A program made the position numbers and the translations under genes. Source: Escherichia coli (lineage in GTDB: Bacteria; Pseudomonadota; Gammaproteobacteria; Enterobacterales; Enterobacteriaceae). Taken from it: a stretch of 64,000 bases of DNA. Location of the stretch: NCBI RefSeq assembly GCF_003334335.1, contig NZ_QOWQ01000027.1; one strand, written 5' to 3'. Below are positions 11,494-13,465 of the stretch, in pieces. Under the pieces are notes generated by a model. It saw only the letters and a program-made list of their open reading frames with translations. It was not told the origin of the DNA and ran no database searches. Every line of letters begins with the position of its first letter. Position 1 is the stretch's first letter.

Positions 11494-11623
11494 GTAAAGA
11501 AAAATACAAGCGGAATGTTTATAAAATGATGTTGAAATGTAAACAAAGAGAGGTAATGCCAGGGGATATAAACGATTATTCCAGGTACAAAGATGGGATT
11601 GTTTACAACGAGCCATGTGTTCT

Positions 11624-11657
11624 TGCCGGATGCCGCGTAAACGCCGTATCCAGCCGA
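11624..11657. repeat. REP element
   Basis: tgccggatgccgcgtaaacgccgtatccagccgac matches the REP palindromic unit family. Confidence 0.65.
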
Positions 11658-11956
11658 CAAAACCGTCCTGACTCAATACATCAAAACTTCCATGTAAAAC
11701 TGATAAGCGGGTGTATCAAGCAATTTCGTCCATCCTCGATTATCAAATCTAACTTTTTGCCCGGAACATAATAACAGCTCGGGTGTTGGTGGCGTCAAAA
11801 TCGCTGAAGCGTTCCCCGAAGGCCGGGACAGCAGGGGGCGGCGGCGATTGGCCGCCCCCTGCGCGCTCCCTGCACCATTCAATTTATATGGCGAGGCACA
11901 TTAAGGGAGCGCAACCCGCTGCTGAAGCCAAACAAAACCGCCGCAGGCTAAGTCCC

Positions 11957-13465
<1,509 letters not shown>

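Follow-up and report, generated by a model that had tools for sequence, protein, structure and literature searches.

The GC-rich inverted repeat between putP and efeU of Escherichia coli is a stem-loop of TRIP1b, a truncated copy of the TRIP1/RRS intergenic repeat

The TRIP1 family of intergenic repeats goes back to a 1999 screen for intergenic repeats in K-12 and was treated by Li et al. 2024 (Genes 15:236, PMC10888264), who place TRIP1a in aqpZ-ybjE (lysO), TRIP1c in yohI (dusC)-yohG, TRIP1d in alx-sstT and TRIP1e in copA-ybaP, and who describe TRIP1b as a partial TRIP1a of 146 bp with a 125-bp internal deletion, located 41 bp downstream of putP and always in the 'reverse' orientation. Two of these repeats are also known as 'replication risk sequences' (RRS; Pham et al. 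2024, NAR 52:6392, PMC11194060), RRS-lysO being TRIP1a and RRS-dusC being TRIP1c. In that work, the G-quadruplex (G4)-forming motif GGGGGTGCAGGGGGCGGCGG stalls polymerases when it lies on the lagging-strand template, and the stalling results in post-replication gaps, up to 2 kb long, to which RecA and SSB bind. Elevated RecA/SSB deposition was detected by ssGap-seq at two sites only in wild-type E. coli, lysO and dusC, and no RecA or SSB peak appeared when an intact RRS was inverted experimentally; Pol II was also blocked in vitro by the RRS-C strand, elsewhere in the RRS (PMC11194060). The same paper names 'a third partial repeat' in passing only, and the words 'hairpin', 'stem' and 'cruciform' are absent from its main text. 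With the exception of TRIP1e, the published TRIP1 loci were found independently in the present analysis.

The locus considered here belongs to a stretch of 64,000 nucleotides of an E. coli genome (contig NZ_QOWQ01000027.1 of assembly GCF_003334335.1), called the window below, in which an earlier note had pointed out a hairpin in the spacer separating efeU and putP. The features of the region are the following:

10585-11424, minus strand: efeU (from the list of open reading frames)
11425-11956: putP-efeU spacer
11773-11915, plus strand, which is the G-rich 'sense' strand: TRIP1b, an internally deleted TRIP1/RRS repeat (BLAST of full-length copies)
11773-11830, plus strand: orphaned 5' part of the repeat, made up of the 5' sides of the closing stem (P1) and the junction helices, and including 11815-11828
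11831-11842, plus strand: left (5') arm of the hairpin, GCAGGGGGCGGC, 12 nt (inverted-repeat search)
11832, no strand: deletion junction (one-base overlap of two BLAST segments; alignments with full-length copies)
11843-11850, plus strand: loop of the hairpin, GGCGATTG, 8 nt
11851-11862, plus strand: right (3') arm of the hairpin, GCCGCCCCCTGC, 12 nt (inverted-repeat search)
11863-11912, plus strand: last stem-loop of the repeat, GCGCTCCCT / AGGGAGCGC, with 9-bp arms and a 32-nt loop
11957-13465, minus strand: putP, 502 aa (from the list of open reading frames and the putP annotation in matching E. coli records)

The perfect inverted repeat first described, AGGGGGCGGC-ggcgattg-GCCGCCCCCT at 11833-11860, is present, and its real arms are one pair longer on each side, closed by G-C. 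Using fixed arms, a free loop and up to three mismatches, we found this site as the sole match in the 64-kb window, and the arms with a free loop had no match in 100 dinucleotide-preserving shuffles. The 42-nt hairpin segment folds as RNA with -31.6 kcal/mol on the plus strand and -31.3 kcal/mol on the minus strand, and as DNA with -18.3 and -17.5 kcal/mol respectively (folding Z-scores of -3.7 to -4.6), which agrees with the former description of a very stable hairpin, on either strand. The distance to putP, previously put at about 100 nt, is 95 nt between the end of the right arm and the putP stop codon. No T or U run follows the stem on its 3' side on either strand, as already remarked, and the terminator scan made no call on it; an intrinsic (Rho-independent) terminator is therefore ruled out. 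An Rfam match to a miRNA over the hairpin was discarded as spurious.

The hairpin had been taken for an isolated element, but about 60 bp on its left and about 53 bp on its right belong to one and the same repeat. Using the full-length putP-efeU copy of another strain (L004) as BLAST query, we obtained two collinear segments, 11749-11832 and 11832-11958, both 100% identical, bases 85-209 of the query (125 bp) being missing from the window. The boundaries of the repeat were given by the aqpZ-lysO copy as query (11773-11832 and 11811-11915, 83-95% identity), and the alignment of the copies shows that the full repeat is about 270 bp long, from ...CGCACGGGTGTTGGTGGCG to ...AAGGAGCGCAAC. The K-12 MG1655 copy at putP-efeU (L001) has the same deletion and is 100% identical to the window over the repeat. 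Since the two segments overlap by 1 nt at the junction, an 'ACAG' microhomology at the deletion is ruled out. The inverted repeat is thus the 3'-proximal stem-loop of TRIP1b, a truncated copy of an enterobacterial intergenic repeat. The window copy shows no sequence-level difference from the published TRIP1b: locus (41 bp after the putP stop), length (143-146 bp), 125-bp deletion and orientation are the same. The hairpin is an ordinary part of this already catalogued object, and there is no new element to name.

The first G5 run, two hairpins with GGA loops and the 3' side of the long closing stem disappeared with the 125 bp. In the 11-copy consensus fold described below, the orphaned 5' part of the repeat corresponds to alignment columns 20-61, which pair with columns 122-186, the latter deleted in the window. 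This accounts for the second, shorter palindrome that the earlier note had seen next to the hairpin (ccccgaaggccggg, 11815-11828): the sequence exists, yet it forms no hairpin by itself, as it represents the 5' halves of two long-range helices (columns 48-61) whose partners (columns 122-138) are deleted in the window. The last stem-loop of the repeat has survived, being found as an inverted repeat, predicted in single-strand folds of both strands and present in the consensus of the family, where columns 227-237 pair with 255-276. A small ORF after an SD-like AAGGAG at the 3' end of the repeat was considered and rejected; some copies have an ATG but the frames are not conserved, the one in K-12 TRIP1c being of 3 codons.

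The repeat is antisense to putP and ends at 11915, the putP ORF including its stop codon having its boundary at 11957; any 3' UTR of putP would include it as antisense sequence. The promoter scan of 11300-12100 gave no promoter-like site. The whole spacer is 100% identical in one complete E. coli genome, that of strain BE2-5. The hairpin had been said not to resemble REP, and indeed the only REP-like sequence in the spacer, a palindrome gccggatgccgcgtaaacgccgtatccagccgaca at 11619-11655, is away from it; this palindrome is also a weak Rfam match to the REP-derived naRNA4 (28 bits for a threshold of 59.5, E = 0.0076) and is missing from the short spacer of the UTI89 type. In UTI89, the putP-efeU spacer has 219 bp and no repeat, and a canonical terminator with a stem and a U-run comes after putP, GCAGAGGGCAAT-CAGTT-ATTGCCCTCTGC and then a T-run on the putP strand (L010, about 1600-1650). 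The counterpart of this terminator in the window (about 11555-11600) has degenerated; it is found about 360 nt away from the stop of putP, past TRIP1b and the REP-like palindrome.

Other copies of the sequence, for which a genome search had been suggested, were looked for by searching 161 bases around the hairpin against 5,426 complete genomes of E. coli. All 5,426 gave matches, at 1-8 places each (median 3), many of them split in two pieces about 125 bp apart, so that the refuting condition of the earlier note, a unique and unconserved sequence, does not apply. Within E. coli, the homologous copies occupy four spacers, putP-efeU, yohP-dusC, alx-sstT and aqpZ-lysO, with 87-94% identity between paralogues, and the repeat also occurs in E. 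albertii, Pseudescherichia and Klebsiella. A scan of genome contigs with the 16-mer ACCGCGCAGCGGCGAT gave chance matches in high-GC genomes, this pattern being too unspecific and the cross-genus sample small, with at least three true copies among the matches listed (E. albertii, P. vulneris and one MAG); GGGATAAGNNGANGGNACCGCGCAGCGGCGAT is a longer and more specific pattern for TRIP1 copies.

At putP-efeU itself, 3,563 of the 5,426 genomes have a window-like spacer and 946 carry the full-length repeat (for example strain 2014C-3011, L004 1501-1787), which therefore leaves about 2,617 with the deleted allele (identity bands mostly 95-100%), and about 1,863 have neither, these counts being based on coverage thresholds of BLAST places and not on an inspection genome by genome. 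As the full-length allele is found at the same locus, the deletion arose in place, and the progenitor allele of the TRIP1b deletion still segregates, which adds to the published description of TRIP1b in its 146-bp form. The deleted form has been kept with little change, a situation compatible with recent common descent or with mild constraint. In one full-length allele, that of strain O169:H41, another 11 bp are deleted, across the right arm of the hairpin, and the left arm has a C-to-T change, and this damage, like the genomes devoid of a copy, indicates ongoing decay at the putP-efeU locus.

Among the origins proposed at first (RNA stability element, protein binding site or remnant of a small mobile element), the last comes closest, in that the element is a truncated TRIP1/RRS copy; a MITE-like transposition, by contrast, is not shown. 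Neither a target-site duplication nor a terminal inverted repeat could be defined by comparing filled and empty alx-sstT and putP-efeU spacers and both aqpZ-lysO orientations, because the flanks differ too much to leave a clean empty site or duplication. The phage collection contained no match to the repeat and thus gives no phage link. Most matches in the plasmid collection came from chromosomes labelled wrongly or from large fragments; all were typed as non-mobilizable, and they hold no evidence of plasmid carriage.

Several further observations were made on the other members of the family. The K. pneumoniae record CP125156.1, which is chromosome-sized (5.37 Mb) although held in the plasmid collection, has 13 places (for example L011 1501-1728), compared with 1-8 in E. 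coli, and the TRIP1 family appears to be expanded in Klebsiella. The aqpZ-lysO copy has opposite orientations in K-12 (L013 4010-4284) and DFL.5 (L009 2001-2268), with different flanking spacer sequence, which agrees with the forward and reverse counts of TRIP1a given by Li et al. (PMC10888264) and points to an independent insertion or a local inversion. The alx-sstT spacer contains TRIP1d in some strains, and in K-12 (L012, about 3570-3740) another GC-rich repeat, CCCTCTCCC...GGGAGAGGG / GGGGTGAGGG...CCCTCACCC, which we take to resemble the box C-type repeats; this one spacer therefore houses different repeat families in different strains. In the aqpZ-lysO copy of E. coli MSB1_8B, a 1,387-bp insertion sequence interrupts the second GGA hairpin of TRIP1a within its loop (L007 547-1933), with the junction ...CTTACAGGGA^CGTTACC, a transposase of the IS110 family and subterminal inverted repeats GGACGCTCC/GGAGCGTCC. 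The same junction is found in 174 of the 5,426 complete E. coli genomes and suggests that this IS110-family element targets the TRIP1 repeat; other members of IS110/IS1111 target REP.

We computed a consensus fold of 11 copies, comprising E. coli TRIP1a-d and copies of E. albertii, K. pneumoniae, P. vulneris and one MAG. It has 77 pairs, 17 of them with changes on both sides. Two C-G pairs of the hairpin are both A-U in TRIP1c of strain Nissle (GGGGGAGGA / TCCTCCCCC, the latter being the right arm), and in P. vulneris, where the right arm carries CCACCC, they read U-A and U-G; the 8-nt length of the loop is kept in the E. coli, Klebsiella and Pseudescherichia copies. These compensatory substitutions mark the hairpin as a module conserved in the TRIP1 family, and as such it is not intrinsically 'junk'. 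Such changes could come from selection for pairing, as RNA or as single-stranded DNA, or from template-switch 'correction' of quasi-palindromes. Several U-G pairs of the consensus exist on the G-rich strand only.

The first GGA hairpin of the full-length core also covaries (CCCA/UGGG, CGCG/CGCG, CCCG/CGGG), and the two GGA loops, CAUGGAUG and ACAGGGAC, presumably resemble high-affinity sites of the CsrA type (SELEX consensus). With its long closing stem and these two hairpins, full-length TRIP1 is reminiscent of the TwoAYGGAY RNA (RF01731), but Rfam gives its core only 28.4-33.1 bits, below the gathering score of 43, on the G-rich strand, at the following places:

L002 2523-2662, G-rich strand: sub-threshold TwoAYGGAY match (Rfam)
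L006 2011-2176, G-rich strand: sub-threshold TwoAYGGAY match (Rfam)
L005 3230-3381, minus strand, G-rich strand: sub-threshold TwoAYGGAY match (Rfam)
L013 4037-4176, G-rich strand: sub-threshold TwoAYGGAY match (Rfam)

The hairpin lies outside this motif, the region of the motif is lost in the window copy, and Rfam found no TwoAYGGAY match over the spacer. The element of the window consequently belongs neither to REP nor to the intrinsic terminators nor to TwoAYGGAY.

The window copy and the RRS are homologous and have the hairpin and the last stem-loop in common, the 5' arm of the hairpin coinciding with the second (3') half of the G4 motif of the RRS, GGGGGTGCAGGGGGCGGCGG. The window copy differs in having neither the first G5 run nor the 125-bp core: the complete motif was not found in the window, where only the half-motif GCAGGGGGCGGCGG is present, at 11831, and the G4Hunter maximum is 1.36, versus 1.84 for intact copies, with a two-tetrad pattern of G-runs, GGCCGGGACAGCAGGGGGCGG, remaining. 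It differs as well in orientation, as the G-rich strand of TRIP1b is the minus strand of MG1655 at 1.08 Mb in the right replichore and is therefore the leading-strand template, a placement with which the GC skew of the window plus strand (-0.023, z = -4.1) is consistent. TRIP1b thus has neither the complete G4 motif nor the G-rich strand on the lagging-strand template, two sequence-level features of a functional RRS; the pair of gap-forming sites reported does not include it, and the published maps give no sign of RRS activity there. As DNA, the two strands of the full RRS fold with -83.6 and -79.9 kcal/mol, and because these values are nearly equal, hairpin energetics alone do not explain the published strand asymmetry; the idea that the hairpin rather than the G4 is behind the strand-specific stalling of polymerases is accordingly not supported.

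Considering the loss of the G5 run and core, the leading-strand orientation and the restriction of the K-12 ssDNA maps to two intact sites, we therefore infer that the hairpin is most likely, with a probability of about 0.7, the surviving stem-loop of a truncated and wrongly oriented TRIP1/RRS copy, a decaying relic having no RRS activity and no dedicated function. A TRIP1/RRS copy of about 270 bp at putP-efeU lost its central 125 bp in place. In correctly oriented intact copies (RRS-lysO and RRS-dusC), the G-rich strand, which comprises the 5' arm of the hairpin as well as the G5 run immediately before it, stalls DNA polymerases on the lagging-strand template and so leads to post-replication gaps. 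With this upstream G5 run and the whole core gone, and the G-rich strand serving as leading-strand template, the window copy would have no RRS activity, and its sole likely residual effect would be a passive one, that of a very stable stem-loop in the putP 3' UTR. The hairpin itself would have survived since it forms a module that is complete in itself and was left intact, in a repeat truncated only recently.

This passive effect might have been put to use: REP stem-loops stabilise mRNA, and the hairpin is similarly a GC-rich intergenic palindrome downstream of a gene, with no U-run and with a potential to protect mRNA 3' ends. It has no similarity in sequence to REP and is present in 1-8 copies per genome instead of the hundreds known for REP. 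In K-12-like strains, the scan predicts no intrinsic terminator from the putP stop to the hairpin, which could therefore have been co-opted for 3'-end formation or stability of putP: transcription would read through, and the stem-loop would block 3'-to-5' exonucleases or set a processed 3' end, thereby stabilising the putP mRNA. The equal folding of the hairpin on the putP-sense strand, the folding of the 201-nt region 3' of putP as a whole (z = -2.4) and the degeneration, in the lineage of the window, of the putP terminator known from UTI89 are in favour of such an RNA element. We nevertheless consider this main rival unlikely, as the missing U-run leaves no intrinsic terminator, as the accessible part of the Term-seq supplements of PMC7815308 gives an end in the putP 5' UTR only and none in the putP 3' UTR, and as there are strains whose copy is full-length, others whose hairpin is damaged (O169:H41) and others lacking a copy, these alleles arguing against a required role of the hairpin.

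A weak RRS-like activity at the DNA level, with the hairpin or cruciform and the leftover G-runs slowing replication or constraining supercoiling locally, is far less probable than the decaying relic. A perfect GC-rich palindrome of 12 bp reaching -18 kcal/mol as single-stranded DNA, the remaining two-tetrad pattern and the in vitro block of Pol II on the RRS-C strand at another RRS position (PMC11194060) would suit it, but only part of the G4 motif is left, the G-rich strand serves as leading-strand template, the intact RRS lost its RecA/SSB peak on inversion and elevated RecA/SSB was reported at the two known sites only (PMC11194060). That the repeat encodes a structured non-coding RNA, transcribed from the plus strand convergently with putP, is hardly credible here: the family-wide covariation (17 of 77 pairs), the U-G pairs confined to the G-rich strand and the recurrent sub-threshold TwoAYGGAY matches of full-length copies speak for it, but transcription of TRIP1 is a speculation in the literature, the region has no promoter-like site and the window copy, with the core of two hairpins missing and one side of the closing stem gone, cannot fold into such an RNA.

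The hairpin is explained by a catalogued truncated repeat, with little import for the window itself. For the family, the pairing of a segment that overlaps the proposed G4 is maintained across genera, a point absent from the RRS paper (PMC11194060). It is conceivable, though rather improbable in our opinion, that the conserved hairpin, whose 5' arm is shared with the RRS G4, is, in addition to that G4, a selected and functional determinant of TRIP1/RRS, for instance as a switch between hairpin and G4 in single-stranded DNA, or that the whole repeat is a transcribed TwoAYGGAY-like RNA; if so, TRIP1b would be a natural 'core-less' control allele and not a functional unit. The putP-efeU locus offers a natural allele series, with full-length (946), core-deleted (about 2,617), hairpin-damaged (some) and empty (about 1,863) genomes, which can be used to test which parts of RRS/TRIP1 cause replication gaps or affect neighbouring transcripts.
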